A DNA stretch of 64,000 nucleotides, taken from the NCBI RefSeq assembly GCF_046119375.1, contig NW_027362762.1:801660001-801724000 (forward strand), given 5' to 3'. The stretch comes from Phyllobates terribilis (taxonomy: Eukaryota). Below are positions 15,898-64,000 of the stretch, in pieces. A program made the position numbers and the translations under genes. The number at the start of each line of letters is the position of its first letter. Position 1 is the first letter of the stretch. Under the pieces are notes generated by a model. It worked only from the letters and a program-made list of their open reading frames with translations, was not told the origin of the DNA and did not search any database.

Positions 15898-16984
15898 ACT
15901 CAAATCCAGTGTCTTTTTTTGGGAGGTGTATTCCCACGCACCTCTTCACACCCACACATGGGTATGCGCTTCCTTATTTTGGCTATTTGCTCTTTTCCTC
16001 CTCCTTCTCCTCATCCTCCACCACCATATCACCAGGGTGACCGTGGTCCGTGATGCAACACCCACGTAATTTTTTTAAAGGGTGTTTATGATGCCCGTGA
16101 AAATTTTTCTCTATACAGTATGTTCATCTATACCCCCCCGGAGTAAATGTTTGTCAGCCCATACACTTAGTGCATTGGAATTACAAGTATAGGAGGCCCG
16201 CTCCTTTCTAATGGGAACATTTTTTTTATGAGGCCCTCCTCCACGTCTCTTCCAAGGGGCATTGAAGTGCCTCCAAATTTTTGGCAGCCCTTGCATTCAC
16301 TGCATAGGCCAACACTATGGGAGACTCTCTCCTTTCTCATGGGAATTTGTCGTTACTGTGGCCCTGCTCTGTGTGTCTTTAAATTCTTAGTGGGGTTTTT
16401 CCTAAAATTGGTCAGCCGTTGGACTCACTGCATACCCTATAACTGTATAGAAAACCCTCTCCTTTCTAATGGGAACATGTCGTACCTTGTTACTGTGGCC
16501 CTGCTCTATGTTTCTTTAAATTCTTAGTGGGGTTTTTCCCAAATTTTGGCAGCCCTTGTAGTCACAGCATGGGCATTACCAATATAGGAGAGCCGCTTCT
16601 TTATAATGGGAACATTTTTTTTACTGAGACCCTCCTCTATGTCTCTTCAAAGTGGTATTGGGTTGCGTCCAAATTTTTGGCAGCCCTTGCAGTCACTGGA
16701 TATGCAATAACAGTATAGGAATAGTAAGGGCCATCTGATGTCCCTGTAAAAATAGGTTTTATGACTTTCAAAGTCCCTAAAGCATAAATAAAAAAGGATG
16801 TGTCTGATGATGTGTCACACACCACATTGCCAGATAAGGTTGTAAAATGTTAAAATGACCTATCCCGGTGAATGCATTTGTCTTAAAAAATAACGTAAAA
16901 AAACCAAAACAATAGGATCTTTCTTTAGTATAAAAAACAGCGTCACCAATTTAACCTCAATGTAATCACATTGTTCAGCTCATG

Positions 16985-18505
16985 CTCCTCCTCTTCCATC
17001 TCCGAAATGATCACATCAGTCAGAAGCTGACAGCACTGCAGCACTGCCTTGGCCAAGCGGCAACAAGCTGTGCTGAAGATAACATACTTAATGCTTAATT
17101 GACATACCGCCCAGCGCTGCAGAGTTGTTGAAAGTTGTAACACAGCAGCCTGATCTGTGGCTCTCACCGCTGAACATACAGCCAGGCATGGTCGTGTGTG
17201 ACAATGGGCGGAACCTGGTGATAGAGAAATGACATCCGGGGTAGATACAGTTTCCCTCTATGCCAGTCCTTTCACCGAGCTAAAGAATATGGCTGTGGTG
17301 AAATACAACTCCCACTGAGAAGTTGTTTCAGATTGAAAAACGTGCCCATCAGAGGATTTGATTCTGAGGGCTAACCTTTCTCACCCGCTCAAGAGCAGCT
17401 GCAAAGTTAGCGCTATCATGAATTCTCCTGAGGTAGAAGCCAAGGCACACCAGAGGATTCTCTGGTGGGACCGTCCAACCCTGCCGAGAAGCAGTCCTGG
17501 CTAAGAAAAGTGTGTGGGAAGGTTCCCGGACACTCTATGGCTGCTTTTTAACTGAGGAGGAAACGCACGCAAACACGGGGAGAACATACAAAGTCCTTGC
17601 AGATGTTGTCCTTGCTGGGATTTGAACACAGGATCCCAGCGCTGCAAGGCTTCAGTACTAACCACTGATCCAATGTGCTGCCGTTCACCCTCTAATATCT
17701 AACAGGCTGGAGAAACTTGCACCTACTGCCACTCTATCTTCAGCTCCTTTGTGAGAAAATGTATTTGGGCAGCCACTCAGTCTACCAAATAAAATTCCTG
17801 AAAAGCAAATTGGGGATGGCTTCGCTACTGGTACTGGGGGCAGTGCTAATACCATGGCGTCGTACCATAGTTTGCTGGAAATATTCCAGGCTGGTAGTAG
17901 GCAAGTAAATTCCCACAGAAAAGTACCAGCAGTAATGTTCAGTCCACATTTCAAGTGCAAGCAGCTTAAGAGGACTTCCTGGGAGAAATGACACGCAGGG
18001 TAGATACGGTTTCCCTCTATGCCAGTCCTTTCACCGAGCTAAATACAACTCTTAGCAAAAAAAGTTGTGGACTGGCTCCATACCGTCCCTGGCCACAGTC
18101 ACCTGTCCACGTGTTTGTGGTTAGGCGGTCCTTCCCAGTAAGTGCATCGGGGAGGGCGCTTGTAATGTTGTGGAACCCGTGCATGTGGAAGGCTTAGGCG
18201 ATACCGGGAAATATAGTGGCGGCTGGGGACCGAGTATGGACTCCCGGCCGCCGCCAGCATGAGGTTGTGAAAAGCTTTCGCCTCCACGAGCCTTAAAGGC
18301 CACATTTCAAGTGCAAGCAGCTGTCAAAAATTTGGCAGTATAGTATTGCAGCCTGTGGGTGGGTGGGTGGCTGCCTGCATACTTGCGCTTGCATTCCAAG
18401 GAATGGGGTAGGGACAACTGAACACTGCAGTGGGACAAGGACGTGGACGGTGATTGTTGCAAGTCTGCAACGACAGGTGCATGGCGGGAGGCATCTTCGC
18501 ATGCG
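16985..18505. mobile_element. Patchwork of reshuffled hAT transposase fragments in both orientations
   Basis: 16985-17220 matches 14790-15010 in + orientation and 18060-18505 matches the transposase in - orientation. Short duplications occur at 17223/17982 and 17945/18300. Confidence 0.7.
17555..17682 (-). mobile_element. 5' fragment of the same V-SINE-like family
   Basis: Colinear with 10860-10985. Confidence 0.8.
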
Positions 18506-18609
18506 CCAAGGATCACTTATGATGGGCACACTTTTAGGCAGTGACCTGGGAGTCAGAGATGCTTCCAGAGGTCTTCCCCATGCTGTTCCCATGTCTTTTC
18601 AGCACTGTA

Positions 18610-19186
18610 TGCATGTGTCTGATGATATGTCACACACCACATGGCCAGATAAAGTTGTAAAATGTTAAAATGACATTTCCTGGTGAATGCATTTGTCACA
18701 GTTGAGAGCAATTCAAAAGTGCAAAAACACATCAAAAACGCTACGTGTGAACATAGCCCAAGTTGTGGAGGAGAATTTTTGTTTTTGGTTATTTATTTTG
18801 CCTTATATACAAGTCATTACCCTGTAAAGGATGTTCCTTAACATATTTCCCTGGAAAATCCATTTTGGTTTCGTTTTTGTATGTTTTATTGTGAGTCCGT
18901 AAAAGTGGCGTAATACTCCGACCACGTTGCTGACAGCAGTGATCTGGGAGTCAGAGATACTTCCAGGGGTCTTCCCCATGCTGTTCTCATGTCATTTGAG
19001 AACTGTTCCCATCGATTTCGGCAATTTTTAGGCCGTCTGCAGACCGCCGGGGGGAGCCGCCTGAAAAATGCTCGAGTTTCCCATAGACTTACATTGGGTT
19101 CGTTGCTCGGGTCGAGCACCCGAGTATTCCAATGTGCTCGACCCGAGCAACGAGTACCCAAGCATTTTAGTGCTCGCTCATCACAA
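18610..19186 (+). mobile_element. hAT 3' terminal segment ending in a TIR (GCTCGCTCATCACAA)
   Basis: Reverse complement of 19218-19790. Confidence 0.8.
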
Positions 19187-19217
19187 GTCATTAGTGTTGA
19201 GCGCAAGTTCTCGCTAC

Positions 19218-22200
19218 TAGTGATGAGCGAGCACTAAAATGCTCAGGTACTCATTGCTCGGGTCGAGCAAATTGCAATACTCAGGTGCTCGACCCGAGCA
19301 ATGAGCCCAATGGAAGTCTATGGGAAACTCGAGCATTTTTCAGGCGGCTCCCCTTGGCGGTCTGCAGAGGGCCTAAAAATTTCCCAAATCGATGGAAACA
19401 GCGCTCAAATGACATGGGAACAGCATGGGGAAGACCCCTGGAAGCATTTCTGACTCCCAGGTAACTGCTGTCCACAACGTTGTCAGAGTATTACGCCACT
19501 TTTACAGACTCACAATAAAACATACAAAAACGAAACCAAAATGGATTTTCCTGGGAAATATGTTAAGGAACATCCTTTCCAGGGTAATGACTTGTACACA
19601 AGGCAAAATAAATAACCCAAGGTGTGGAGGAGTATTTGGTTATGTTCACACGTAGCGTTTTTGATGCGTTTTGTACTTATGCATTGCTTTCAACCAAGAC
19701 AAATGCATTCACTGGGAAATGTCATTTTAACATTTTACAACCTTATCTGACCATGTGGTGTGTGACACATCATCAGACACATCCTGTTTCATTTATGATG
19801 GAGGGACTCTGAAAGTCACAAAGCCTATTTTTATAGGGCCATTAGGCGGCCCTTACTATTCCTAAAGGGCCAGCAGTCGGCCCCCGCTATTGTTAGAGAG
19901 CCATCAGCCGGCTATGCTTTGTTGTTCCCATTATTAACAAGTGGGTCTCCTTTACTCTTATTGCGTATGCAGTGACTGCAAGGGCTTCCAAAAATTTGCA
20001 CGCAACCCAATTCCCCTTTAAAGAGACATAGAGGAGGGTCTCAGTAAAAAAAATGTTCCCATTATAAAGGAGCGTGTCTCCTATAGTGGTAATGCCCTTG
20101 CTGTGACTGCAAGGGCTGACAAAATTTGGGAAAAACCCCACTAAGAATTTAAAGACACATAGAGCAGGGCCACAGTAACGACAAATTCCCATAAGAAAGG
20201 AGAGAGTCTGCTATACAGTTATAGGGTATGCAGTGAGTCCAACGGCTGACCAATTTTAGGAAAAACCCCACTAAGAATTTAAAGACACATAGAGCAGGGC
20301 CACAGTAACAACAAATTCTCATTAGAAAGGAGAGAGTCTCCCATAGTGTTGGCCTATGCAGTGAATGCAAAGGCTGCCAAAAATTTGGAGGCACTCCAAT
20401 GACCCTTGGAAGAGACTTAGAGGGCCTCATAAAAAAATATTCCAATTAGAAAGGAGTGTATGGGCTGACAAACATTTACCCCTGGGGGATATACATGAAC
20501 ATACTGTATAATTTTTTTTTTTTTTTATGGGCATCATAAACACCCTTTAAAAAAATTATGTGGGTGTTGCATCACAGACCACGGTCACCCTGGTGATATG
20601 GTGGTGGAGGAGGAGGAGGAAAAGAGCAGATAGCCAAAATAAGGAAGCGTATACCCATGTGTGGGTGTGAAGAGGTGCGTGGGAATACACCTCCCAAAAA
20701 AGACAGAGTTTGTTACGCTGCTATCATTCAGTTGTGCTGAGAAGTCTGGCCCAATCCAGCCCTTGTTCATTTTTATAAGAGTCAGCCTGTCAGCATTTTC
20801 AGTTGACAGGCGGATGCGCTTAACAGTTATAATTCCATCAGTGGCACTAAAAACACTCTCTGATAAAACACTAGCGGCAGGGCAGCCCAGGACCTCCAAG
20901 GCGTAGAGAGCCAGTTCATTGCACGTATCAAGCTTGGATACCCAATAATTAAAAGGCACAGAGGAATCACGGAGGATGTTGGTACGGTCGGCAAGGTACT
21001 CTAAGCATCTTCCCAAACTTTGCACTCCTTGTGAGAGTATCCCGCACCTGAGGGCCTGTGCGATGCGAGGGTCTGAGAAAACTGTCCCAGAACTTTGACA
21101 GTGTTCCCCTGCCTCTGCTGGATTGCATTTGTGTCTCTCTAACCTGTACTCCTTGTTTGTCCAACGAACTGTGATCTCTGCCGCCAGCGTTTTCAGATGG
21201 GAATTTTTTTAATAGTTCCGCAACAAGGGCCTTCTGATACTGCCCCATTTTTGTAGACCTCTCCGCCTCAGGAATAAGAGACATAAAGTTCTCCTTGTAG
21301 CATGGGTCTAGAAGTGTCACCAACCAGTAATGACTGTCACCCAAAATTTTGTGAACGCGAGGGTCATGGGAAAGGCTGCCTAACATAAACTCAGCCATGC
21401 GTACCAGACTGCTAACAGACAAGACTTCCGTGTCCTCACCAAGAGGATGACTGACCATGCTCTCCTCCTCCTCCTCCTCTCTGTCCTCTGGCCATCCACG
21501 CTGAACAGACGGTATGACAGTTGGGCAGGTAGTACCGTCTATAGCGCATGAAACTAGCTCCTGTTCTTCCTCCTCCTCTTCCTCCTCCTTTTCCTCATTG
21601 TCACCCAATCCATGTTGGGATGAGATGAGGCTTGGCTGTGTGTAATCACCCTGTATGGTTCCTTGCTCCATCTCATCGTGCTCCACCTACAATGATTCAT
21701 CCTTGATTGTGAGCAGAGAGCGTTTCAGAAGACAGAGAAGCGGGATGGTGACGCTAATTATGGCGTCACCTCTGCTCACCGTCTTGTGGAGTCTTCAAAG
21801 TTTTGGAGGATGGTACATATGTCTGACATCCATGTCCACTCCTGAGGTCTTGTATGTGGAGTCTGATCTGAATACCGACGGCCTTGTTGATGCTGGTACT
21901 CAACAACTGCCCTCTTCTGCTCACAAATCCTTCCCAACATCTGCAGTGTAGAGTTCCAACGCATGGGGACATCACACACCAGTCTGTGAGCCGGAAGCTG
22001 CAAACGCTGCTGAAACACGGCAAGGGCGGCGGAAGCTGTAGGTGACTTTCCAAAATGGGCACACAGGCGGCGTACATTAACAAGCAGATCTGGCAGCTCC
22101 GGGTAGGATTTGAGAAACCGCTGAACCACGAGGTTAAGCACATGGGCCAGGCATGGTACATGTGTAAGCTCACCTCGCCTCAGAGCCGCCACCAGGTTGC

Positions 22201-24020
22201 AGCCATTGTCACACACTACCATACCTGGCTGTAGGTTCAGCGGTGTGAGCCACAGATCTGCCTGCTCTTTCAGAGCTGTCCACAACTCTTCAGCATTGTG
22301 CGGTTTTTCACCTAAGCATATTAGCTTCAGCACAGCCTGTTGCCGCTTGGCCGGGGCAGTGCTTCCAGCTTGTGACTGATGTGGTCATTTCGGAGATGGA
22401 GGCTGAAGAGGAGGAGGAGGCTGAGGAGGATGAGGTGCAGGAGCTGTAGACTGTGGGGGCAACCCTGCTTGACCTAGGGCCCACAATCCTCTGCGTCGGG
22501 AGGACGTGTTCCGTCCCAAGGTCCGACTGGGTCCTTGCTTCCAGTATGTTAACTCAGTGTGCCATCAGCGAGATGTACCGTCCCTGCCCACAAGCACTTG
22601 TTCACGTGCCCGTGGTTAGGTGGACTTTCCTGGTAACTGCGTTGTTGAGTGCACGGCTAATGTTTTGGGACACGTGCTTGTGTGATGCGGGGACGGCACA
22701 CCGGGAGAAATAGTGGCGGCTGGGGACCGAGTACCGAGGGACGGCCGCTGCCATCAGGTTGTGGAATTCTTCCGTCTCCACAAGCCTAAAAGGCAACATT
22801 TCGAGCGCAAGCAGTCGTGAAATGTGGGAATTTAGTAGTGTGGCCTGTGGGGCGTTGGCTGCATATTTGTGCTTGCGTTCCAAGGACTGGGGTATGGACA
22901 ACTGAACTCTGCGCTGGGACAAGGACAAGGACATGGACGTGCTTCCTGATGCTGCTACTTGAGAGTGTGCAATGACAGGTCAAGGGCAGAAGGCATCTTC
23001 GCATGCACCATGGACAGGAGATTGGCTTGCATGCACAACAGTGGAAGAAGCAATGGTGCCACCCGGAGACACTGTTCCTGGACCCTGGGCTTCGGCCGAC
23101 AAAGTCGGATGCTTTGCTGCCATGTGCCTGATCATGCTGGTGGTGGGTAGGCTGGTCGTTTTGCCACGTGCCTTGCCCATTTTAAATGTAGGACAATATC
23201 TTCCACGCTCACAACAAATGACTGAATTTGGAGCGAACTTATATGTGATCCATGTGACGGACAACTCACAGTTTTAAATACTTGGTCTATAGGTAACTAT
23301 TTTGAAGACCAATCTGGTGTCAATTGCTTCACTGACACACTGAAACAAATTTTTAATGGAGGTCAGAAATGGCAGTATTTTCTGAAAACGTATATGTGAT
23401 CCATGTGACGGAGAAAACACAGTTTTAAATAGCTGGATTTTTAGCGCTGTAATATGGAAAGGATCTGGCTGTATTCTGCAGTGCCAACAAGCAAATGGAG
23501 CAGAAAAACTGTTCTCTGGATTGCTTTTTAAGCAAATAATGAGGATTAAGATCCAAAAAAAAATTATTCCTGAGACCTGGGCCTATTTCTAGAAATATAA
23601 CAGCAGCAGCAGACAGAACTGGAGTGGAGCCTCCTGTGCTATATGCACTGCAGTCTGCTATATACCCTGCCTATATACACTGCCTGCCTGATATCTCTGC
23701 AGATGGATTAGTCCTCAGAAGGACTGTTTGTTGAGATGGATATGTGTCTCTAATATAGTTTGGTATACTTACACGAACTAGAAACAACCAAATCTCTTCC
23801 TAGCTCAGCAGCAGCTCTCCCTACACTGTCTGATTCCGGAGTGACTGTGACGAGCATGGCGGCGCCAGGAATGATATATCTAAAGAGCGCCAAACATACA
23901 GGGAGGAGACCCGAGCTCCCGCCGAGCAACCCCGGAAATATTCGGCGAGCGCTGAGCATGTCGAGCAGTGAGATGCTCTGGCGGGCACCGAGCAGTAGCA
24001 AACATGCTTGCTCATCACTA
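19218..24020 (-). mobile_element. Decayed hAT transposon, copy B, with both TIRs
   Basis: TAGTGATGAGCGAGCAC at 19218 and GCTTGCTCATCACTA ending at 24020, with transposase remnants on the minus strand. Confidence 0.85.
20712..23180 (-). pseudogene. hAT transposase pseudogene, copy B
   Basis: ORF pieces 22602-22934, 21776-22333 (VVCDNG, CLAHVLNL, DVPMRWNST), 20967-21686 and 20585-21025 (CPAASVLSE). Frameshifted. Confidence 0.9.
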
Positions 24021-35097: not shown

Positions 35098-35562
35098 CGC
35101 ATGGTCACTCTGTCGACACCATTATAATCTATGGCCCCATCGGCGCGTACGTCCGAATCCCTTTTTATGGGGGGGTTCAGACGCAAGCCTCGACGGGGAC
35201 ACTGAACGGGTGCAAAACGCAATGTGAAAGCAGCCTTAGCAGTGCACAGCTAACTTCATTAGTGCCGTAGAGTTTAATTGGAGCAGCAAGGTGCATGAGG
35301 TCTTGTGACTTGGGGTGAACAGAGGACATAGGGAATTGATGCTAATTTGATAAAAACTGAATACTCTTTGACATTGTTATCCAAAGAAAAGGTGAGAGTC
35401 CCAGGTTAGCAGTGTGCGGCCATCTTCATTAGTTCAGTAGACTTTGAATGGAGCCGCAGGGTGCATGAGGTCTTATTATAATTTGATAAAAACTGAATAT
35501 TCTTTGACAATGTTACTGTAACATTTTCAGAAAAAATGTGTGAGTGAATAAGTGAGGGTCAG

Positions 35563-37165
35563 TGTAACATACCTGGCGGCGTCCTTGCATGGTGGTCCAT
35601 CTCCCACTGTGCAAGAGAGCGCACTTGATCTCCTGTCCAGAATGTCTCTCTGGCTTCCCTCCATGCTGTCTGTTTGTGTCTGTCTCTGCTGCTTAAGGGC
35701 GGCGCCCGATCACTTCCTGCTCTTTGTACCTGCTGTGGGTCACGCCCCTTGTGCGTCCTCAGCCTATTGCTGTCTGACACTTGGTATATAGCTCAGCAGC
35801 TCCCTTCTATCCCTGCCTGAGCATAGTGTTTTCCTTCAGTGTGTGCTTGCACTCTGAAGGTGCCAGGTCCCGTCTTTGTTTCCTTGTCTGCCTTTCCTGG
35901 AGGCTGTATTTCCAGGCCTGTCTGAACTTAGTCCTGTATGTCTCCTGCTTTGCGGTATCAGCTCCCGTGTCTGAACTGTGTCCTGTATGTCTCCTGCTTT
36001 GCGGTATTAGTTCCCGTGTCTGAACTGAGTCCTGTATGTCTCCTGCTTTGCGGTATTAGTTCCCGTGTCTGAACTGAGTCCTGTATGTCTCCTGCTTTGC
36101 GGTATTAGTTCCCGTGTCTGAACTGAGTCCTTTCTGTGTATCTTGTCTGTCCTGTCTGAACACGCTCCTAGCCTGTTCCTCCCGCCTTCTAGGGGCCGAT
36201 TACCTAGACCCGCTCCTGTATTTTGTCTGTCCTGTCTGAACACGCTCCTTGCCTGTTCGTCCCGCCTCTCTGGGGGCAGTATTCCCAGACCCGCTCCTGT
36301 ATCCCGCTGCAGTGTCGGTCCCCTCCGTACACTCAGTTCCAGTCTGAACTCTCTCCTATCCTTTACCTGTTTTTCCTCTATGTCCGTTCCCTTCCTTTTT
36401 CTGCAGAGTCTGAACTCGTACCTAACTCCTGCTTGTTGTCTCTGTACTCCCGTTTGTGAGTTTGTGGTCCCCTCGCTACTTCACTGCAAGTACCCTGTGG
36501 GTATCTGGCTCTGCCTTTCCCTTCCTGTCTGTTCCGTGTGTACAGACTCCTGTCCGTTCTGCTCCGGCAGTCCTGTCCTGCCCTGCTTCTGCCCGCTGCT
36601 CCGGCAGTCCTGTCCTGCCCTGCCTGTACCCCTCTGCCTGTAATGTTCCTGAGTCCCAGTGTGTACTGGGCCCTATCCCGCCTGTGTTCCTACCTGCTAG
36701 TGCCTCCCTGTCTGCACTCTAGCTGTGCTTGCCTGTAACCCTCTGCCTGTATTGTTCCTGAGTCCCGGTGTGTACTGGGTCCTATCCCGCCTGTGTTCCT
36801 ACCTGCTAGTGCCTCCCTGTCTGCACTCTAGCTGTGCTTGCCTTTACCCCCCTGCCTGCATACCCGCCTGCCTGCATACCAGTTGTGCCTGCCTATACCC
36901 ACCAGTCTGTGTGCCAGCCTACCAGCCTGTTCCTGTATTCCCCTGTGTGGGTCAACAGCCGTGTCCGGGGTCTGTCCTGGAGTAGCACCTGGTCCCTCTG
37001 CTCGGTTCCTCCTTGGTGCACTGGCGTCGTATGCCGTCGTGCGACCCTGGTCGGATCGGGTGAATACTTAGTCACGCCCCTCCAGGCATTCACTCTCCGG
37101 CACGGTCCAGTGGAATCACTACCAATCACACGCACACGCCGCTTAGCCCGGGCGTGTGCATAACA
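35563..37165 (+). repeat. 5' LTR (1603 bp)
   Basis: Matches 38983-40536 except for one extra variant 49-bp unit and two substitutions that I could see. Confidence 0.95.
35697..35815 (+). promoter_or_regulatory. LTR U3 promoter: GC box, ETS-like CACTTCCTG, CACGCCCC, TATATAG at 35785; predicted TSS near 35815
   Basis: The motifs are seen directly. The TATA-like box lies 30 nt upstream of the sequence complementary to the PBS. Confidence 0.6.
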
Positions 37166-37167
37166 GC

Positions 37168-37177
37168 ATGCTCAGGC
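37168..37177 (+). other. Self-priming primer-binding site
   Basis: ATGCTCAGGC, 2 nt after the LTR, is complementary to GCCTGAGCAT at 35815-35824. No TGG tRNA-type PBS is present. Confidence 0.75.
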
Positions 37178-37306
37178 CATGGTTCCCGTTGAGCCCCACG
37201 GCCTTCGCTCTTTGAGAAGTTTTTCCAGCGAATATATGCATTAAAATAAATAAATAAATTTTTTTTTCTCTTAGCTGAGTTCCAGGCGAAATTACGCACC
37301 GTCCAG

Positions 37307-39211
37307 ATGGATCTATCAGCTCTCGTTCCTGCGGATCCGCCACGTTACTATGGGGATCCAAGACAGTGTCGTGCATTTGTGGAGCAATGCATGCTACACT
37401 TTAAGGCCTACCCTCTCTATTTTCCTTCCGATTGGGCTAAAGTGGCCTTTATTATGTCTTACCTGGCGGGTGATGCCTTGGAATGGATCAACCTCCTATA
37501 TGAAACACAGGATCCGATCCTCCGGGACCTAATGGCCTTCCTGGTGGCCTTTATAATGGTCTTCGATGATCCTAACCCGGAGGCTCCTGCTGAAGCTTCA
37601 CCTCCCAATATCCCGGAGCAGCCCCAATGGGTAATGTGTGTGGGTAGCGCAATAGTCCTCCAGCCCAATGAGACTACTGCCCACCCAGAATCCTCACAGG
37701 GTGACTACGCTTTCCGGAATACTTCTCTCAACCTCAAGAGGCAGTCCAGACGTGCTAGACGTAGAGGCAAGCCGTCACGCCAGGGTCTGTCCTCCCTGAG
37801 ACCTCCTGACCCCAACCTTGAAGTCCCTACTGAAGCTTCATCTCCCTGTATCCCGGAGAAACCCCAATGGGTAATGTGCGTGGGTAGTGCACCAGTTCTC
37901 CTGCCCGAAGAGACTTCTGCCCATCCAGACTCCACACAGGAGAACTTCCTGCACCCGGCATCAGATGCTTCTCTCTCTTTAACCGGTGTGCATGTCCAAG
38001 GATGCTCCAAAGCTGTGGTTACCTCTGAGTCTGTGCACCTCTACTACCTGGCGGAGGATCCCCTGTTGCCTCCTGAATCCTCCGGGATACCACTCGATGA
38101 CAAATGGAGAGAGACTTCTCTACACCCGGTACTCAATACCTTGTCCGCTTCGTCCTGTGAGCCTGACAATGGGTACCCCAAAGTGGTAGTTACCTCCGAG
38201 TCTCTACACCCCTCCGACCAGGCGGAGGATCTCCAGTTGTCTCCTGAACCCTTCGGGGTGCTACCTGGTAGCGAAAGGACAGAGACTCTCCTATACTCTG
38301 TACCTGATACCTCGCTCGCTTCGTCCAGTGAGTCCAACCTAGTGTACTCCGAAGCAGAGGTTACTCCTGAGTCTCTACACCCCTCCGACCAGGCGGAGGA
38401 CCTCCAGTTGTGTTCAGAATCCTTCGGGGTGCCACCTGGTGGTGAATGGACAGAGACTTTCCTATATCCTGTACCTGATACCTCGCTCGCTTCGTCCAGT
38501 GAGTCCGACCTAGTGTACTCCGAAGCAGAGGTTACTCCCGAGTCTCTACACCCCTCCGACCAGGCGGAGGACCTCCAGTTGTGTTCAGAACCCTTCGGGG
38601 TGCCACCTGGTGGTGAATGGACAGAGACTTTCCTATACTCGGTACCCGATACCTCGCCTGCTTCCTCCAGTGAGTCCGACCTAGTGTACTCTGAAGCAGT
38701 TGTTTTCTCTGAGCCTCTGCACTCTTCTGACCCGGCGGAGGACCTCCAGTTGTTTCCTGAATCCTCCGGGATACCACCAGATAACAAAGAGACAGTGACT
38801 TTTCCTCATTATGTACCTGATAACCCGTCTATTTTTTCCTGTGAGCTTGACAAGATGTACCTCGAAGCAGAGATTACCCTCAAGTCTCTGTCCCCCTCCA
38901 ACCCAGTGAACGACTGGTCCTCGAATTCCCTGCGGAAGATTCTGGCAGGCCTGAAGAAGAGGGGGCGTAAGGGGGGAGGTACTGTAACATACCTGGCGGC
39001 GTCCTTGCATGGTGGTCCATCTCCCACTGTGCAAGAGAGCGCACTTGATCTCCTGTCCAGAATGTCTCTCTGGCTTCCCTCCATGCTGTCTGTTTGTGTC
39101 TGTCTCTGCTGCTTAAGGGCGGCGCCCGATCACTTCCTGCTCTTTGTACCTGCTGTGGGTCACGCCCCTTGTGCGTCCTCAGCCTATTGCTGTCTGACAC
39201 TTGGTATATAG
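37307..39211 (+). CDS. Gag-derived protein: capsid N-terminal domain (PEG10/RTL/LDOC1-like) plus 57-aa acidic repeats, 634 aa
   Basis: PPRYYGDPRQCRAFVEQC...KVAFIMSYLAGDALEW...VFDDPN is the sushi-type Gag CA-NTD signature. The frame stays open through five 171-bp repeats and 229 nt into the 3' LTR. Confidence 0.8.
   Translation: MDLSALVPADPPRYYGDPRQCRAFVEQCMLHFKAYPLYFPSDWAKVAFIMSYLAGDALEWINLLYETQDPILRDLMAFLVAFIMVFDDPNPEAPAEASPPNIPEQPQWVMCVGSAIVLQPNETTAHPESSQGDYAFRNTSLNLKRQSRRARRRGKPSRQGLSSLRPPDPNLEVPTEASSPCIPEKPQWVMCVGSAPVLLPEETSAHPDSTQENFLHPASDASLSLTGVHVQGCSKAVVTSESVHLYYLAEDPLLPPESSGIPLDDKWRETSLHPVLNTLSASSCEPDNGYPKVVVTSESLHPSDQAEDLQLSPEPFGVLPGSERTETLLYSVPDTSLASSSESNLVYSEAEVTPESLHPSDQAEDLQLCSESFGVPPGGEWTETFLYPVPDTSLASSSESDLVYSEAEVTPESLHPSDQAEDLQLCSEPFGVPPGGEWTETFLYSVPDTSPASSSESDLVYSEAVVFSEPLHSSDPAEDLQLFPESSGIPPDNKETVTFPHYVPDNPSIFSCELDKMYLEAEITLKSLSPSNPVNDWSSNSLRKILAGLKKRGRKGGGTVTYLAASLHGGPSPTVQESALDLLSRMSLWLPSMLSVCVCLCCLRAAPDHFLLFVPAVGHAPCASSAYCCLTLGI
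38953..38982 (+). other. Polypurine tract
   Basis: GAAGAAGAGGGGGCGTAAGGGGGGAGGTAC lies directly before the 3' LTR TGT. Confidence 0.85.
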
Positions 39212-40536
39212 CTCAGCAGCTCCCTTCTATCCCTGCCTGAGCATAGTGTTTTCCTTCAGTGTGTGCTTGCACTCTGAAGGTGCCAGGTCCCGTCTTTGTT
39301 TCCTTGTCTGCCTTTCCTGGAGGCTGTATTTCCAGGCCTGTCTGAACTTAGTCCTGTATGTCTCCTGCTTTGCGGTATTAGTTCCCGTGTCTGAACTGAG
39401 TCCTGTATGTCTCCTGCTTTGCGGTATTAGTTCCCGTGTCTGAACTGAGTCCTGTATGTCTCCTGCTTTGCGGTATTAGTTCCCGTGTCTGAACTGAGTC
39501 CTTTCTGTGTATCTTGTCTGTCCTGTCTGAACACGCTCCTAGCCTGTTCCTCCCGCCTTCTAGGGGCCGATTACCTAGACCCGCTCCTGTATTTTGTCTG
39601 TCCTGTCTGAACACGCTCCTTGCCTGTTCGTCCCGCCTCTCTGGGGGCAGTATTCCCAGACCCGCTCCTGTATCCCGCTGCAGTGTCGGTCCCCTCCGTA
39701 CACTCAGTTCCAGTCTGAACTCTCTCCTATCCTTTACCTGTTTTTCCTCTATGTCCGTTCCCTTCCTTTTTCTGCAGAGTCTGAACTCGTACCTAACTCC
39801 TGCTTGTTGTCTCTGTACTCCCGTTTGTGAGTTTGTGGTCCCCTCGCTACTTCACTGCAAGTACCCTGTGGGTATCTGGCTCTGCCTTTCCCTTCCTGTC
39901 TGTTCCGTGTGTACAGAGTCCTGTCCGTTCTGCTCCGGCAGTCCTGTCCTGCCCTGCTTCTGCCCGCTGCTCCGGCAGTCCTGTCCTGCCCTGCCTGTAC
40001 CCCTCTGCCTGTAATGTTCCTGAGTCCCAGTGTGTACTGGGCCCTATCCCGCCTGTGTTCCTACCTGCTAGTGCCTCCCTGTCTGCACTCTAGCTGTGCT
40101 TGCCTGTAACCCTCTGCCTGTATTGTTCCTGAGTCCCGGTGTGTACTGGGTCCTATCCCGCCTGTGTTCCTACCTGCTAGTGCCTCCCTGTCTGCACTCT
40201 AGCTGTGCTTGCCTTTACCCCCCTGCCTGTATACCCGCCTGCCTGCATACCAGTTGTGCCTGCCTATACCCACCAGTCTGTGTGCCAGCCTACCAGCCTG
40301 TTCCTGTATTCCCCTGTGTGGGTCAACAGCCGTGTCCGGGGTCTGTCCTGGAGTAGCACCTGGTCCCTCTGCTCGGTTCCTCCTTGGTGCACTGGCGTCG
40401 TATGCCGTCGTGCGACCCTGGTCGGATCGGGTGAATACTTAGTCACGCCCCTCCAGGCATTCACTCTCCGGCACGGTCCAGTGGAATCACTACCAATCAC
40501 ACGCACACGCCGCTTAGCCCGGGCGTGTGCATAACA
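38983..40536 (+). repeat. 3' LTR (1554 bp)
   Basis: Near-identical to the 5' LTR and followed by the TSD GTCAG. Confidence 0.95.
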
Positions 40537-41164
40537 GTCAGCAGTATCTTAATATTGACTTACCTTTTAATGTCTTCACATCCCTTTCCGTCCAGATGTG
40601 TCCGGATCCCAGAATTCCAAGGGGCGGAAGTTCGTCGACCGCCATATTGGAACACTCAAGTGATTGGTGTCTCAATATGGAAACCGCTGGTGGTACCAGC
40701 CTATTGCACGGTATCACCAGCGGAACATCATCGCGCACACGCCGCCTCCGGGATCAGCCGAATGATTCAATGACCGTCGCCATCTTTGTACAGGAGGAGC
40801 GCATGCACAGTTTTAATGTGACTGCCACTATCTGCCTGCACAAAGATGGCTGCGGTCTGATTTACTGCGCCTGCGCGAATTCCACGCAGGCACAGTGAAT
40901 CATTTGGCTGATACCGATGGCAGATGCGCGACGTGTCAAAAGGCAGAGGAAGCCGGTCACACTAACTGCGCATGCACGAAATCGAGGAGCACATGCGCAG
41001 TTAATTTGTTAATTTTTGAACTGCGTCACAGCAACATCAGTGTTTGACAGATGCAGTGACGCGCCGGCAGCCTCAGTCGGTGAACATAAGAATCAACTAC
41101 ATCAGTAAAAATTAGAATGAAATGAATAGGTGGAAATTATAAATAAACAAACAAACAAAAAAAG

Positions 41165-43277
41165 CGTGTCAGGGACCTAAAAAAAAAACACGTTACAGCG
41201 TGTCACGGACCAAAAAACACGTTACAGCATTTCACGGACCAAAAAAAACACGTTAAAGTGTGTCAAGGACCTAAAGACACATTACAGCGTGTCATGGACC
41301 TAAAGACACGTTACAGCGTGTCACGGACCTAAAGACACGTTACAGCGTGTCACGGACCTAAAGACACGTTTCAGCGTGTCACGGACCTAAAGACACGTTT
41401 CAGCGTGTCACGGACCTAAAGACACGTTTCAGCGTGTCACGGACCTAAAGACACGTTTCAGCGTGTCACGGACCTAAAGACACGTTTCAGCGTGTCACGG
41501 ACCTAAAGACACGTTTCAGCGTGTCACGGACCTAAAGACACGTTTCAGCGTGTCACGGACCTAAAGACACGTTTCAGCGTGTCACGGACCTAAAGACACG
41601 TTTCAGCGTGTCACGGACCTAAAGACACGTTTCAGCGTGTCACGGACCTAAAGACACGTTTCAGCGTGTCACGGACCTAAAGACACGTTTCAGCGTGTCA
41701 CGGACCTAAAGACACGTTTCAGCGTGTCACGGACCTAAAGACACGTTTCAGCGCGTCACGGACCTAAAGACACGTTTCAGCGCGTCACGGACCTAAAGAC
41801 ACGTTTCAGCGCGTCACGGACCTAAAGACACGTTTCAGCGCGTCACGGACCTAAAGACACGTTTCAGCGCGTCACGGACCTAAAGACACGTTTCAGCGCG
41901 TCACGGACCTAAAGACACGTTTCAGCGCGTCACGGACCTAAAGACACGTTTCAGCGCGTCACGGACCTAAAGACACGTTTCAGCGCGTCACGGACCTAAA
42001 GACACGTTTCAGCGTGTCACGGACCTAAAGACACGTTTCAGCGTGTCACGGACCTAAAGACACGTTTCAGCGTGTCACGGACCTAAAGACACGTTTCAGC
42101 GTGTCACGGACCTAAAGACACGTTTCAGCGTGTCACGGACCTAAAGACACGTTTCAGCGTGTCACGGACCTAAAGACACGTTTCAGCGTGTCACGGACCT
42201 AAAGACACGTTTCAGCGTGTCACGGACCTAAAGACACGTTTCAGCGTGTCACGGACCTAAAGACACGTTTCAGCGTGTCACGGACCTAAAGACACGTTTC
42301 AGCGTGTCACGGACCTAAAGACACGTTTCAGCGTGTCACGGACCTAAAGACACGTTACAGCGTGTCACGGACCTAAAGACACGTTACAGCGTGTCACGGA
42401 CCTAAAGACACGTTACAGCGTGTCACGGACCTAAAGACACGTTACAGCGTGTCACGGACCTAAAGACACGTTACAGCGTGTCACGGACCTAAAGACACGT
42501 TACAGCGTGTCACGGACCTAAAGACACGTTACAGCGTGTCACGGACCTAAAGACACGTTACAGCGTGTCACGGACCTAAAGACACGTTACAGCGTGTCAC
42601 GGACCTAAAGACACGTTACAGCGTGTCACGGACCTAAAGACACGTTACAGCGTGTCACGGACCTAAAGACACGTTACAGCGTGTCACGGACCTAAAGACA
42701 CGTTACAGCGTGTCACGGACCTAAAGACACGTTACAGCGTGTCACGGACCTAAAGACACGTTACAGCGTGTCACGGACCTAAAGACACGTTACAGCGTGT
42801 CACGGACCTAAAGACACGTTACAGCGTGTCACGGACCTAAAGACACGTTACAGCGTGTCACGGACCTAAAGACACGTTTCAGCGTGTCACGGACCGAAAG
42901 ACACGTTTCAGCGTGTCACGGACCGAAAGACACGTCTCAGCGTGTCACGGACCGAAAGACACGTCTCAGCGTGTCACGGACCGAAAGACTCGTCACAGCG
43001 TGTCACGGACCGAAAGACACGTCACAGCGTGTCACGGACCGAAAGACACGTCACAGCGTGTCACGGACCGAAAGACACGTCACAGCGTGTCACGGACCGA
43101 AAGACACGTTACAGCGTGTCACGGACCGAAAGACACGTCACAGCGTGTCACGGACCGAAAGACACGTCACAGCGTGTCACGGACCGAAAGACACGTTTCA
43201 CCGTGTCACGGACCGAAAGACACGTTTCACCGTGTCACGGGCCAAAAAAAAACACGTTACAGCGTGTCACAGACCTA
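41165..43277. repeat. 29-bp minisatellite, about 73 copies, organised in variant blocks
   Basis: Unit GACACGTT(T/A)CAGCGTGTCACGGACC(T/G)AAA. Confidence 0.97.
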
Positions 43278-43409
43278 AAAAGACAGATTATAGAATAAAA
43301 TGTTTTTTTTTTGTTCTTACGTGGATACAATGTAAATTGAAGCACCTTTGTCATAAATTTTTCCATGTTAATAAAATGTTACCTTTACCTACTATGCTTT
43401 CATTTTTAC

Positions 43410-49069: not shown

Positions 49070-49965
49070 GGCCATGTACACCTGGATGGGGGGCCTTGGA
49101 TACCCGGATGGAAATGGGGGGCCATGGGTACCTGGATGGAGATGGTGGGGGGGAATCATGTATTCCAGGATGGGGATGAGGGGGCCAAGCATACCAGGAT
49201 GGGCACGAGGGGGCAAAGCATACCAGGATGGGCACGAGGGGGCCCAGCATACCCGGATGGGCACGAGGGGGCCGTGCATACCAGGATGGGGATGAGGGGG
49301 CCGTGCATACCAGGATGGGGATAAGGGGGCCGTGCATACCAGGATGGGGATGAGGGGGTCGTGCATACCAGGATGGGGATGAGGGGGTCATGCATACCAG
49401 GATGGGGATGAGGGGGTCATGCATACCAGGATGGGGATGAGGGGGGGTCATGTATACCAGGATGGGGATGAGGGGGGGTCATGTATACCAGGATGAGGGG
49501 GTGGCATGTATACCAGGATGAGGGGGCCGTATATACCGGGATGGGGATGAGGGGGCCATGTATACCAGAATGAGGATGAGGTGGCCATGTACACCAGGCT
49601 GGGGATGAGGGGGCCATGTATACCAGGATGGGGGTGAGGGGGCCATGTATACCAGGATGGGGGTGAGGGGCCCATGTATACCAGGATGGGGGGTGAGGGG
49701 GCCATGTATACCAGGATGGGGGTGAGGGGGCCATGCATACCAGGATGGGGGTGAGGGGGCCATGCATACCAGGATGGGGATTGGGGCCATGTATACCTGG
49801 ATTAGGATGAGGATTGGGGCCATGTATACCTGGATGGGGGGGGGCATGTATACCTGGATTGGGATGGGGGGCCATGTATACCAGGATGGGGGGGCATGTA
49901 TACCTGGATTGGGGGCCATATATACCAGGATAGGGATCATATATACCACCAGGATAGGGACATAT
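49070..49965. repeat. G-rich 26-30-bp minisatellite
   Basis: GGGGGCCATGTATACCAGGATGGGGATGA-type units. Confidence 0.92.
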
Positions 49966-49966
49966 A

Positions 49967-51595
49967 CAGTACAGACCAAAAGTTTGGACACACCTTTTCA
50001 TTTAAAGATTTTTCTGTATTTTCATGACTATGAAAATTGTACATTCACACTGAAGGCATCAAAACTAAGAATTAACACATGTGGAATTATATACTTAACA
50101 AAAAAGTGTGAAACAACTGAAAATATGTCTTATATTCTAGGTTCTTCAAAGTAGCCACCTTTTGCTTTGATCACTGCTTTGCACACTCTTGGCATTCTCT
50201 TGATGAGCTTCAAGAGGTAGTCACCGGAAATGGTCTTCCAACAATCTTGAAGGAGTTCCCAGAGATGCTTAGCACTTGTTGGCCCTTTTGCCTTCACTCT
50301 GCAGTCCAGCTCACCCCAAACCATCTCGATTGGGTTCAGGTCTGGTGACTGTGGAGGCCAGGTCATCTGACGTAGCACTCCATCACTCTCCTTCTTGGCC
50401 AAGTAGCCCTTACACAGCCTGGAGGTGTGTTTGGGGTCATTGTCCTGTTGAAAAATAAATGATGGTCCAACTAAACGCAAACCGGATGGAATAGCATGCC
50501 GCTGCAAGATGCTGTGGTAGCCATGCTGGTTCAGTATGCCTTCAATTTTGAATAAATCCCCAACAGTGTCACCAGCAAAGCACCCCCACACCATCACACC
50601 TCCTCCTCCATGCTTCACGGTGGGAACCAGGCATGTAGAGTCCATCCGTCTCCTTTTCTGCGTCGCACAAAGACACGGTGGTTGGAACCAAAGATCTCAA
50701 ATTTGGACTCATCAGACCAAAGCACAGATTTCCACTGGTCCAATGTCCATTCCTTGTGTTCTTTAGCCCAAACAAGTCTCTTCTGCTTGTTGGCTGTCCT
50801 TAGCAGTGGTTTCCTAGCAGCTACTTTACCATGAAGGTCTGCTGCACAAAGTCTCCTCTTAACAGTTGTTGAAGAGATGGGTCTGCTGCTAGAACTCTGT
50901 GTGGCATTGACCTGGTCTCCAATCTGAGTTGCTGTTAACCTGCGATTTCTGAGGCTGGTGACTCGGATAAACTTCTCCTCAGAAGCAGAGGTGACTCTTG
51001 GTCTTCCTTTCCTGGGGCGGTTCTCATGTGAGCCAGTTTCTTTGTAGCGCTTGATGGTTTTTGCAACTGCACTTGGGGACACTTTCAAAGGTTGCCCAAT
51101 TTTTCGGACCGACTGACCTTCATTTCTTAAAGTAATGATGGCCACTCGTTTTTCTTTACTTAGCTGCTTTTTTCTTGCCTTAATACAAATTCTAACAGTC
51201 TATTCAGTAGGACTATCAGCTGTGTATCCACCTGACTTCTGCACAACACAACTGATGGTCCCAACCCCATTTATAAGGCAAGAAATCCCACTTATTAAAC
51301 CTGACAGGGCACACCTGTGAAGTGAAAACCATTTCTGGTGACTACCCCTTGAAGCTCATCAAGAGAATGCCAAGAGTGTGCAAAGCAGTCATCAAAGCAA
51401 AAGGTGGCTACTTTGAAGAACCTAGAATATAAGACATATTTTCAGTTGTTTCACACTTTTTTGTTAAGTATATAATTCCACATGTGTTAATTCATAGTTT
51501 TGATGCCTTCAGTGTGAATGTACCATTTTCAAAGTCATGAAAATACTGAAAAATCTTGAAATGAGAAGGTGTGTCCAAACTTTTGGTCTGTACTG
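49967..51595 (-). mobile_element. Full-length Tc1-like transposon (1629 bp, long TIRs, TA TSD)
   Basis: TA-CAGTACAGACCAAAAGTTTGGACACACC...GGTGTGTCCAAACTTTTGGTCTGTACTG-TA with TIRs of about 260 bp. Confidence 0.96.
50130..51181 (-). pseudogene. Tc1 DD34E transposase, frameshifted, start codon apparently lost
   Basis: ORFs 50615-51145 (paired-like HTH, GRPR, VLWSDES) and 50130-50645 (FQQDNDPKH, SPDLNPIE) overlap in different frames. AAG at 51179-51181 sits where I infer the ATG was. Confidence 0.9.
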
Positions 51596-52680
51596 TATAT
51601 ACCAGGATGGGGGACTTTACCCCTATAACAGTGTCAGCAGCAGATTCCCCTCCCTATAACAGTGTGCCATGACCACATTTTGCTTCAATTTTTTTCTATG
51701 TTCTTCCTCTAAGGCTAGGTGCGTTTTTGATGCGGAAATTTCACGCGTAATTGGCCTCAAAAACGCATTGCAAACCTTATCCCATGATTTCCTATGATAT
51801 TTTGCAAGATGATCAGGATTTTTCCTGACTGAATTTCATGTGCCGAAAAAGAAGCAGCATGTCCATTCTTTGTGCGTTTTGGCCTGCTTTTTTCCAATAC
51901 AATGCATTGCAAAAAATGTCAAATCCGCAGACAAAAACGCTACTGATTTTCCGCAGCGTTTTTTCTGCCAAGAGTTACAGAAACGCTGCAGAAATTTCTG
52001 CAAGCAATTCCTGATCGTGCGCACATAGCTTAAAATCTAGGTGCTTCTTATGGTCCGGTGCGTTTTATAGTCCGAAAAATGCAGTAATAACCTGAATGAA
52101 GATACACGAATAGATAGTGGGGAGGAAAAACCCCACGCGTATCGCCACTACAATTGTGGCTTCCTCAGGGGTGAGCGTATACTCATTGTCAGTCATTATG
52201 TATTTGTTATACATGCCAGTATTTCTATTGCATCACAACTCTTCAGTTAGTCTATTTGCACGTGTATTTGATCCTTTGTTGTAAACTTGAATCCATATTG
52301 TGAGTTATCTTATTTCATTCGTCTGAATGGATTACACTTGGGCTTAAGTCGGTGTGCATTAGACTAATATTATTATGTTGGTAACCTTTAATATATTATC
52401 ATATGTATAGACAGTGGAGATCTAACTTGATCTTGTTGATATACTACAGCCAGTTGTGCCTTTTACGTGTTTTTATATTTCTACTTTTGGCTAATTTATT
52501 TATCAATAATTATTTAATATTTTTTTGGTGTATCCCTAGTCACACACACTTCTTTCCTTCTTTAATACGTTACTTATTGATATGTGATAGGTTGATCCCA
52601 ATACATATATTTGAGTTGGTGCCCTCTTACACTTACACCGCTTTGTTGTCACATTATTCAGGGAATACAAGCTATCAGGT

Positions 52681-57069: not shown

Positions 57070-58678
57070 CAGTGCCTTGTGAAAGTATTTGGCCCCCTTG
57101 AACTTTTCTACCTTTCGCCACATTTCTGGCTTCAAACTTAAAAATATAAAATTCAAATTTTTTTGGGAAGAATCAACAAGTGGGACACAATCGTGAAGTG
57201 GAATGAAATTTATTGGATATTTTAAACTTTTTAAAAAAATTAAAAACTGAAAAGTGGAGCGTGCAATATTATTCGGCCCCCTTGAGTTAATACTTTGTAG
57301 CGCCACCTTTTGCTGCGATTACAGCTGCAAGTCGCTTGGGGTATGTCTCTATCAGTTTTGCACATCGAGAGGCTGAAATTCTTGCTCATTCTTCCTTGCA
57401 AAACAGCTCGAGCTCATTGAGGTTGGATGGAGGGCGTTTGTGAACAGCAGTTTTCAGCTCTTTCCACAGATTCTCGATTGGATTCAGGTCGGGACTTTGA
57501 CTTGGCCATTCTAACACCTGAATTCGTTTATTTTTGAACCATTCCATTGTAGATTTTGCTTTATGTTTGGGATCATTGTCTTGTTGGAAGATAAATCTCC
57601 GATCCAGTCTCAGGTCTTTTGCAGACTCCAACAGGTTTTCTTCCAGAATGGTCCTGTATTTGGCTCCGTCCATCTTCCCATCAATTTTAACCATCTTCCC
57701 TGTCCCTGCTGAAGAAAAGCAGGCCCAAACCATGATGCTGCCACCACCATGTTTGACAGTGGGGATGGTGTTTTGAGGGTGATGAGCTGTGTTGTTTTTA
57801 CGCCAAACATATCGTTTTGCATTGTGGCCAAAAAGTTCGATTTTGGTTTCATTTGACCAGAGCACCTTATTCCACATGTTTGGCGTGTCTCCCAGGTGAC
57901 TTGTGGCAAACTTCAAATGAGACTTTTTATTGATATCTTTGAGAAATGGCTTTCTTCTTGCCACTCTTCCATAAAGGCCAGATTTGTGCAGTGTACGACT
58001 GATTGTTGTCCTATGGACTGACTCTCCCACCTCAGCTGTAGATCTCTGCAGTTCATCCAGAGTGATCATGGGCCTTTTGGCTGCATCTCTGATCAGTCTT
58101 CTCCTTGTTCGAGAGGAAAGTTTAGAGGGACGGCCGGGTCTTGGTAAATTTGCAGTGGTCTGATACTCCTTCCATTTCAATATGATCGCTTGCACAGTGC
58201 TCCTTGAGATGTTTAAAACTTGGGAAATCTTTTTGTATCCAAATCCGGCTTTAAACTTTGCCACAACAGTATCTCGGACCTGCCTGGTCTTCATGATGCT
58301 CTCTGCAACAGAACCCTGAGACTATCACAGATCAGGTGCATTTATACGGAGACTTGATTACACACAGGTGGATTCTACTTATCATTACCAGTCATTTAGG
58401 ACAACATTGGATCATTCAGAGATCCGCAATGAACTTCTGGAGTGAGTTTGCTGCACTGAAAGGAAAGGGGCCGAATAATATTGCACGCCCCACTTTTCAG
58501 TTTTTAATTTTTTAAAAAAGTTTAAAATATCCAATAAATTTCGTTCCACTTCATGATTGTGTCCCACTTGTTGTTGATAATTCCCCCAAAAATTAGAATT
58601 TTATATCTTTGTTTGAAGCCAGAAATGTGGCAAAAGGTAGAAAAGTTCAAGGGGGCCAAATACTTTCACAAGGCACTG
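57070..58678 (-). mobile_element. Full-length Passport/Eagle-type Tc1 transposon (1609 bp, TA TSD)
   Basis: TA-CAGTGCCTTGTGAAAGTATTTGGCCCCCTTGAAC...-TA with TIRs of about 215 bp. Confidence 0.95.
57287..58294 (-). pseudogene. Tc1 transposase, inactivated
   Basis: The 302-aa ORF has the first catalytic Asp changed to Asn (VLWSNET) and a premature TGA after FCKEE. The frame continues to ...GATKY-TAA at 57287. Confidence 0.9.
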
Positions 58679-62759: not shown

Positions 62760-64000
62760 CCGTATTTTTCGGACTATAAGACCCACCGGACCATAAGACG
62801 CAACTAGGTTTTAGAGGAGGAAAATAAAAAAAATAAAAATTTAAGCAAAAAATGTGGTCATGATGCACTTTTAAGGGGGAGGGGGTCTTCTGCTGACACT
62901 GGTATAGGGGTAATGTCCCCCAATGCTGACAATATCTCCCATCCTGGTATATATGCCGCCCCCCTTCCTTTTATATGTGGTCCCCATCCCCATCCTGGTA
63001 TGCCCATCATCCCTCCATCCTGGTATGCATGGCACCCCTCATCCTTATCCTGGTATGCATGGCACCCCTCATACCTATCCTGGTATGCATGGCTCCCTCA
63101 TCCTTATCCTGGTATGCATGGCACCCCCATACCTATCCTGGTATGAATGGCACCCCTAATCCCTGTCCTGGTATGCAGGTACCCCTAATCCCTATCCTGG
63201 TATGGATGGCACCCCTCATCCCTGTCCTGGTATGCATAGCACCCCTAATCCCTATCCTGGTATGCATGGCACCCCTCATCCCTATCCTGGTATGCATGGC
63301 ACCCCTCATCCCTATCCTGGTATGCATGGCACCCCTCATCCCTATCCTGGTATGCATGGCACCCCTCATCCCTGTCCTGGTATGCAGGCACCCCTAATCC
63401 CTATCCTGGTATGCATGGCACCCCTCATCCCTGTCCTGGTATGCATGGCACCCCTCATCCCTCTCCTGGTATGCATGGCACCCCTCATCCCTGTCCTGGT
63501 ATGCTTGGCACCCCTCATCCCTGTCCTGGTATGCATGGCACCCCTAATCCCTATCCTGGTATGCATGGCACCCCTAATCCCTGTCCTGGTATGCAGGCAC
63601 CCCTCATCCCTGTCCTGGTATGCAGGCACCCCTCATCCCTGTCCTGGTATGCAGGCACCCCTCATCCCTGTCCTGGTATGCAGGCACCCCTCATCCCTGT
63701 CCTGGTATGCAGGCACCCCTCATCCCTGTCCTGGTATGCAGGCACCCCTCATCCCTGTCCTGGTATGCATGGCACCCCTAATCCCTGTCCTGGTATTCAT
63801 AGCACCCCTAATCCCTGTCCTGGTATTCATAGCACCCCTAATCCCTGTCCTGGTATGCATGTCACCCCTAATCCCTGTCCTAGTATGCATGGTCCCCCTA
63901 ATCCCCATCAGGCTGCACATTAAAAAAAACAAACACTCATGCTCACCTCTCTTCTCTCTCCTCCAGCGCTGCGTCCGGTCTGCCTGCACTGATCTCTCCA
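62760..64000. mobile_element. Second Tc2/pogo-like element, inverted relative to 48382-52084, cut by the window end
   Basis: TA-CCGTATTTTTCGGACTATAAGACCCACCGGACCATAAGACGCA is close to the reverse complement of the 52030-52084 end. Confidence 0.75.
62990..63905. repeat. C-rich 29/30-bp minisatellite
   Basis: Unit CATCCCTGTCCTGGTATGCATGGCACCCCT. Confidence 0.95.

Follow-up and report, generated by a model that had tools for sequence, protein, structure and literature searches.

A window of 64,000 nucleotides from Phyllobates terribilis, the whole stretch of DNA analysed here, contains one copy of a young non-autonomous Ty3/Gypsy LTR retrotransposon of the Tf1-sushi group. Its single ORF joins a capsid N-terminal lobe (N-lobe) to a long repetitive tail. 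This architecture is like that of RTL8 and LDOC1, but it is found in a mobile element rather than in a domesticated gene. Stops and frameshifts have been removed from the replicating lineages of the family. Clear amino-acid constraint is seen only in the N-lobe, where it is relaxed relative to autonomous Gag, and the repeats are constrained in frame, not in sequence. We propose, with confidence close to even, that the half-capsid protein of this young, enzyme-less element works in cis, as an adaptor by which its own RNA hitch-hikes on autonomous capsids.

Structure of the element

The element lies on the plus strand, is about 5 kb long with an interior of 1,817 bp, and has no intact PR, RT, RNase H or IN. 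Pol is absent and one ORF lies between the LTRs, as in Gag-only elements. The original prediction did not mention that the ORF is flanked by the two LTRs of a mobile element with many copies. The features of an LTR retrotransposon are all present: a TG...CA LTR pair, a 5-bp target-site duplication (TSD; GTCAG at 35558–35562 and 40537–40541) and a polypurine tract (PPT, 38953–38982), whose in-frame reading is a remnant of the integrase C-terminus (KKRGRKGGG). The 5′ LTR (35563–37165, 1,603 bp) contains a 49-bp and a 109-bp array. The 3′ LTR (38983–40536, 1,554 bp) differs from it by 2 substitutions and is one 49-bp unit shorter.

The primer-binding site (PBS, 37168–37177) is of the self-priming (Tf1/sushi) type, being complementary over 10 of 10 nt to LTR positions 253–262 (35815–35824). 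This self-primer begins 30 nt after a TATA-like box (35785–35790), a spacing that matches autonomous relatives, and is the predicted 5′ end of the transcript. A sushi/chromovirus type of Gag and Pol is further suggested by the identity of the N-lobe and by protease/RT and chromodomain remnants in an older sister family. A U5 segment of about 100 bp (36969–37082), 71–83% identical to autonomous Gypsy LTRs and common to Gypsy LTRs that are otherwise unalike, is a likely cis signal and a candidate packaging or priming structure. No AATAAA-type signal was found in the LTR (35563–37165) with 12 hexamers tested, and AATAAA and ATTAAA are absent from four autonomous LTRs too.

The leader upstream of the ORF is about 1.5 kb long and contains 10 ATGs. 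The former Gag start codon today opens a 21-codon upstream ORF (37180–37245). It is followed by an A/T tract of variable length that ends in AG and resembles a splice acceptor (37240–37273); comparison with the older family indicates that it grew out of a short A/T run in the Gag leader. None of the splice joints listed falls at the acceptor-like AG at 37273.

Directly to the left of the element, 34745–35097 matches 51249–51601 at 98%. The window also contains a large nested inverted repeat (14026–23167; arms 84–95% complementary, with transposase-like frames), which we take to be hAT-like, and frames at 50133–51199 and 57389–58321 (minus), presumably of Tc1-like transposases by their motifs. 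Long minisatellite arrays with 23–30 bp units occur at 41184–43279, 8271–9479, 49084–49891 and 63018–63905; some are open in several frames.

The open reading frame and its capsid N-lobe

The frame beginning at 37307, a collapsed gag-pol frame, comprises 634 codons. The original prediction placed its start correctly but ended it at 38940, whereas it runs on past the PPT and into the 3′ LTR, with its stop at 39211, at the TATA box. Over 569 codons it contains no stop, compared with 10–42 in the five other frames. A functional LTR-encoded C-terminal tail was considered and ruled out: 14 of 74 copies deviate in PPT length and the position of the stop is variable, so the LTR-coded part is dispensable.

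The first 90 residues match DUF4939 (Pfam, N-terminal piece, E 3e-8), and the rest of the ORF has no significant Pfam match. Against 1.84 billion representatives, a full HMMER search produced 945 matches at E 0.001. All 150 matches listed fall in the N-lobe region (37331–37573) and none in the repeats; in 148 of these 150 the best stretch ends by query residue 124, mostly at residues 79–105. Word-indexed protein searches brought up neither matches to the complete protein nor longer relatives of the N-lobe, and the lone N-lobe had no match at E 0.001 with phmmer against PDB sequences or with Foldseek; its relatives were recovered instead by profile and VIA searches. It is 48–55% identical to local Gags, the nearest of those sampled being about 50% identical.

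That Gag homology ends at VFDDP, as originally noted, is borne out. The DUF4939 match and most of the listed HMMER matches end in this region, autonomous Gags of the same genome run on at this point (VFDEP-GRK) into C-lobe, spacer and zinc knuckle, and the alignment with the PEG10 C-lobe structure 7LGA begins exactly at this hinge. The protein is thus not a full-length Gag with both capsid lobes; a DUF4939 N-lobe without C-lobe is the RTL8/LDOC1-like architecture that had been predicted. Structure prediction, proposed together with the HMM search as a check, agrees. The AlphaFold2 model of the N-lobe has a pLDDT of 93.5, and its best fold matches are capsid lobes, among them the dArc1 N-lobe (residues 41–124; Z 9.5, rmsd 3.5, 79 aligned) and the Ty3 NTD (Z 7.8, rmsd 2.2, 72 aligned). 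All of the first 33 fold matches are capsid or capsid-derived lobes, at Z values that are middling for a helical bundle.

Behind the N-lobe, the duplicated 46-aa block reported earlier is present as block A (37568–37705, residues 88–133), probably an eroded and shortened remnant of the capsid C-lobe, and its duplicate block B (37808–37945, residues 168–213), with 81% nucleotide identity. A 17-aa Arg-rich stretch from the CA–NC spacer lies between them (37733–37783). Five in-frame 171-bp (57-aa) acidic units follow as described (38003–38857), together with a partial sixth ending at 38903; the units carry 53 D/E versus 7 K/R over 285 aa. The motif scan of the ORF detected no CCHC knuckle, again as stated before. 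With C-lobe and NC gone, the earlier view that the protein cannot be a normal capsid protein holds.

Descent from gag-pol

Searching with the PBS uncovered a sister family that is older and about 75% identical, with 1,882 junction matches; of 50 loci examined, 46 were used. The frame in this family is collinear with autonomous gag-pol. It contains the N-lobe and a C-lobe with a central deletion, corresponding to block A; then a spacer and a decayed zinc knuckle (E 7e-4 to 0.01); then a decayed protease without catalytic motif and the start of RT (E 1e-12 to 4e-14, weakest 8e-12); and finally the units, a decayed chromodomain (E 0.002) and the end of integrase at the PPT, all E-values of these remnants referring to a four-element database. 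For the leader, the N-lobe, the junction of gag and pol, the protease, the RT start, the chromodomain and the PPT, this order is backed by collinear DNA as well. The Gag ATG behind the PBS still opens the main ORF in frame in 12 of 47 older copies; a broken leader is common to 26 older copies and the young family. The LTR ends of the older family are mostly 88–99% identical, and three copies are stop-free over 633–660 codons.

The ORF thus descends from gag-pol by in-frame deletion and erosion. The young family afterwards shed the knuckle–protease–RT remnant, and it gained a second copy of block A, more units and a higher acidity; the net charge of the window ORF is −53, that of the three stop-free older copies +16, +13 and −16. 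The original prediction saw a capsid domain fused to new sequence. This has to be replaced by in-frame erosion of gag-pol, because the block after VFDDP aligns with the shortened, eroded C-lobe of the older family and hence is not foreign. For the 57-aa unit, neither DNA nor profile comparison with three autonomous gag-pol copies yielded a significant match; the part that aligns, with the linker preceding the chromodomain, is limited to its final residues.

Copies in the genome

The exact LTR–PBS junction occurs in at least 5,473 copies in the 10.6-Gb genome (control, 0), the LTR end has 26,012 matches, and two-ended junctions for the whole group number at least 7,300, making the group a visible contributor to this genome. 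We sampled the first 80 of 100 junctions listed. The interior measures 1,548–2,529 bp in 79 of the 80 copies, the remaining one having no 3′ LTR in its stretch; the copies have 4–9 units and ORFs of near 460–900 aa. In 51 LTR pairs with matching TSD, the mean difference is 0.22% and the maximum 1.2%. Contigs from three runs of one study span the junction between N-lobe and block A, which places the sequence outside the assembly as well; these contigs are of unknown or guessed kind and silent on transcription. Contigs of two other runs leave gaps over the N-lobe. Among 20 sampled full-Gag loci, an automatic scan found four with the same self-priming layout and a near-identical PBS.

Two tandem N-lobes occur in 4 of the 80 sampled copies and in 150 of 150 scored matches. 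No copy with three or more was seen among 20 double-lobe copies, whose selection was based in part on long frames. The tandem N-lobes of this subfamily have diverged, and single-lobe types resemble recombinants of lobe halves. Head-to-tail arrays of the element, with LTRs held in common, were also observed, and one copy has inserted into gag of an autonomous-type Gypsy element.

Selection on the open frame

After removal of five tandem neighbours and one incomplete copy, 74 of the 80 copies were available for frame analysis. The stretch from ATG to PPT is in frame in 72 of them, with 20 distinct lengths; the LTR control has 51 distinct lengths, spread 14/18/19 over the three frames. Frequent stops in sister copies had been named as evidence against the original prediction. 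Seven of the 74 copies do stop early and one further copy has a late frameshift, but all of these changes are private.

A change shared by two or more insertions must have passed through a replicating element. Within the 72 in-frame copies, none of 394 shared changes is a stop, compared with 12.3 expected from codon content and the transition bias of the LTR (P 5e-6), whereas private changes include 7 stops in 194 (5.9 expected); the contrast is significant (Fisher P 4e-4). The older family has no stop among 114 changes present in five or more copies (4.1 expected, P 0.016; common versus rarer changes, Fisher P 0.06), and its indels shift the frame in 34 of 42 rare but 1 of 3 commoner cases. 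Since selection against stops acts between lineages of a multicopy element, the RNA carrying the open frame would be the one to benefit.

This pattern bears on the earlier idea that the protein poisons helper capsids. A trans-acting capsid poison or copy-number control has precedents in p22 of Ty1 (PMC4599808) and in RTL8, of the same architecture and the one N-lobe-only protein tested, which lowers PEG10 particle yield (PMC11684626), as far as the available text of both sources goes; loss of the strong start codon could restrict the dose. It is disfavoured as the main function because stop-carrying lineages are missing among the shared changes: a trans poison, whose product gives the encoding RNA no advantage, would leave such lineages. 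In addition, the element needs those very capsids and has attained its thousands of copies. We consider this role improbable.

It is very improbable that the frame is open through chance and youth, or that the window copy is a domesticated host gene. The copies are indeed very young, the strand is C/T rich and the repeats evolve at an omega of 1, but the stops in the other frames and the contrast between shared and private stops argue against chance. Nor is this a fixed, immobile single-locus host gene, given so many young copies with LTRs and TSDs; the window copy has intact LTRs and a TSD and an identical 433-bp match elsewhere, and is not a singled-out locus.

Selection on amino acids

The omega of the N-lobe is 0.47 for 9 shared haplotypes (P 0.0014 versus 1, codon model) and 0.44 for 36 masked haplotypes (P 0.0001 versus 1). 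Autonomous-type Gags (n = 14) have an omega of 0.16, and the N-lobe value of 0.47 is higher (P 3e-6). Elsewhere in the ORF, omega is 1.03 for block A with the basic stretch, 0.97 for block B, 1.41 for the tail and 1.01 for the acidic units (51 unit haplotypes). Owing to recombination among copies, including N-lobe types, these omegas are approximate and the tree model is weakened. The N-lobe is therefore still constrained, and it is predicted to fold. The hint of protein selection that had been read from the frame-preserving repeats stands only as to the frame: dN/dS between the repeats, the check suggested at the time, is neutral, which had been named as the outcome that would tell against selection on their amino acids.

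In the older family, omega is 0.43 for the N-lobe (P 0.06), 0.50 for block A (P 0.11) and 0.75–0.95 for the knuckle, protease and RT remnants. Between the old and young families, the N-lobe differs by 6 silent and 3 replacement changes (P 0.024), block A by 2.8 silent and 14.2 replacement changes, and the Arg-rich stretch by 3 silent and no replacement changes; the numbers are small throughout, and the last comparison is post hoc. This stretch is missing in frame from 1 of 72 copies.

Long 3′UTRs trigger NMD, and an upstream ORF is itself a decay trigger. Selection at the RNA level is the main rival to the adaptor: translation to about 250 nt from the 3′ repeat would shield the genomic RNA from nonsense-mediated or long-3′UTR decay, the protein being mostly a by-product. 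Such selection would account for the purging of stops and frameshifts while amino acids outside the N-lobe drift. It would also account for the tolerance of frameshifts at the PPT, since only reaching the end would matter, and for the retained ORF length, loss of the protease–RT remnant having been offset by duplicated blocks and units. It leaves unexplained the N-lobe omega below 1, the tandem duplication of this lobe and the unchanged Arg-rich stretch. Lineages with the new upstream ORF thrived despite the expected decay, and autonomous relatives terminate after gag with about 3.5 kb still downstream. We regard escape from RNA surveillance as rather unlikely to be the explanation; it is compatible with the cis adaptor as a second layer, and both may hold.

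The acidity of the tail could itself have been selected in the young lineage for a composition-level job such as solubility, charge repulsion, particle remodelling or condensate behaviour. The mean net charge per unit is −8.9 in the young family (404 units) and −3.5 in the older one (26 units), and lysine-type old units compared with window units 3–5 show 8–11 changes towards more acidic and 1 towards more basic residues (neutral share 0.42–0.47, P 0.001–0.013), although these comparisons are post hoc and non-independent and their direction is only inferred. Measured against the nearest old unit, the charge test is significant for just 1 of the 5 window units. Of the copies whose leader keeps the ancestral reading frame, 7 have lysine-type and 4 acidic-type junctions, 2 having both; intact older ORFs at +13 and +16 indicate that acidity is unnecessary for mobility, and the overall omega is 1. 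A composition-level role is quite improbable.

A possible adaptor to helper capsids

In the cis adaptor that we favour, the ORF would be translated from the second ATG, as the selection on it suggests. The folded N-lobe would bind assembling helper Gag lobe to lobe, as RTL8 does with PEG10, and the protein would be linked to its RNA by the still-translating ribosome, the Arg-rich stretch or both. The long open tail would tether the lobe to its mRNA, the repeats serving as soluble filler of irrelevant sequence. LTR signals common with autonomous elements would then provide for packaging, self-primed reverse transcription and integration, and helper RT, integrase and NC would supply the remaining functions. 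We favour this reading because the only clearly constrained part is the lobe through whose contacts RTL8 is described, in the available text, as entering PEG10 particles (PMC11684626).

Co-assembly with helper capsids had been suggested before, and complex prediction gives it weak support. For the N-lobe with three natural autonomous capsid chains the score was 0.49 (best control, 0.15), a weak value obtained with alignments unused, and one that may reflect memory, as solved capsids exist; at least 89% of contacts recur between runs, and partner pLDDT is at least 79. In calibration, 51 of 78 solved pairs attained the mark for this score, as did 2 of 108 mismatched ones; at 0.60 or under it was reached by only 5 of the 78 solved pairs and by all 4 mismatches that passed.

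According to the available text of the sources, a yeast mini-Ty1 without ORF moves with helper proteins (PMC4974528) and Ty1 Gag has no cis preference (PMC3945221), so a tether is not generally needed. An N-lobe adaptor alone leaves the openness of the whole tail unexplained; either the tether or the RNA-surveillance argument is required.

Relation to known elements and genes

Self-priming Ty3/Gypsy chromoviruses of the Tf1/sushi group were reportedly treated by Butler in 2001. The window element resembles them in the complementarity of PBS and 5′ end, the 5-bp TSD, Gag homology and the chromodomain remnant of the older family, and autonomous members with this layout coexist in the same genome. 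Unlike them, it has no protease, RT, integrase, C-lobe or zinc knuckle, and its gag and pol remnants are in one frame. The self-priming layout is described for Tf1-type elements in the available text of PMC4600332.

Pol-less, single-ORF LTR elements and N-lobe-only domesticated genes are already known, and the family may already bear a repeat-library name. Gag-only non-autonomous elements include plant TR-GAG (PMC8704663), zebrafish Bik-1 and chicken ENS-1 (PMC12067270) and Xenopus 1a11/xretpos (PMC4585706). As far as the text of these sources was available, they have, like the window element, one ORF of about 560–650 aa between LTRs, no pol enzymes and a need for a helper. TR-GAG and Bik-1 are described there with a full Gag or capsid, whereas our element keeps the N-lobe only; it also differs in its eroded in-frame gag-pol and in having thousands rather than tens to hundreds of copies. 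Ty1 p22/p18 and Drt2, too, have one capsid lobe, and it is related to the Gag of the helper, but according to the text available these are C-lobes and trans inhibitors, not an N-lobe on a replicating parasite. In the open-access literature, as represented by titles and the beginnings of abstracts, we found no mobile N-lobe-only element and no eroded gag-pol kept as open filler.

RTL8 and LDOC1 share with the window protein a DUF4939 N-lobe as the only capsid part, unstructured sequence after it and an origin from sushi-type Gypsy elements; their truncation is described, in the accessible part of the source, as having occurred soon after gene birth (PMC11011659). They are single-locus host genes, whereas the window element is mobile, exists in thousands of copies that carry LTRs, PBS, PPT and TSD, and shows selection at the level of lineages that points to a benefit in cis.

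For most non-autonomous LTR elements, RNA signals alone are thought to be sufficient to gain space in helper particles. Strong selection for an open frame without selection on most residues sets the fact of translation apart from the product translated, and the natural stop-carrying copies make this split testable. We suggest, tentatively, that a tethered N-lobe with a neutral but obligatorily open frame is a boarding pass to helper capsids for a successful class of vertebrate LTR parasites. Selfish non-autonomous elements would in that case have invented the half-capsid architecture, possibly before domestication, and the genome would keep the successive steps, from intact gag-pol through a fused and eroded one and the loss of its protease remnant to repeat filler and a doubled N-lobe. 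These steps would form a living route to half-capsids like those of mammalian RTL8 and LDOC1.
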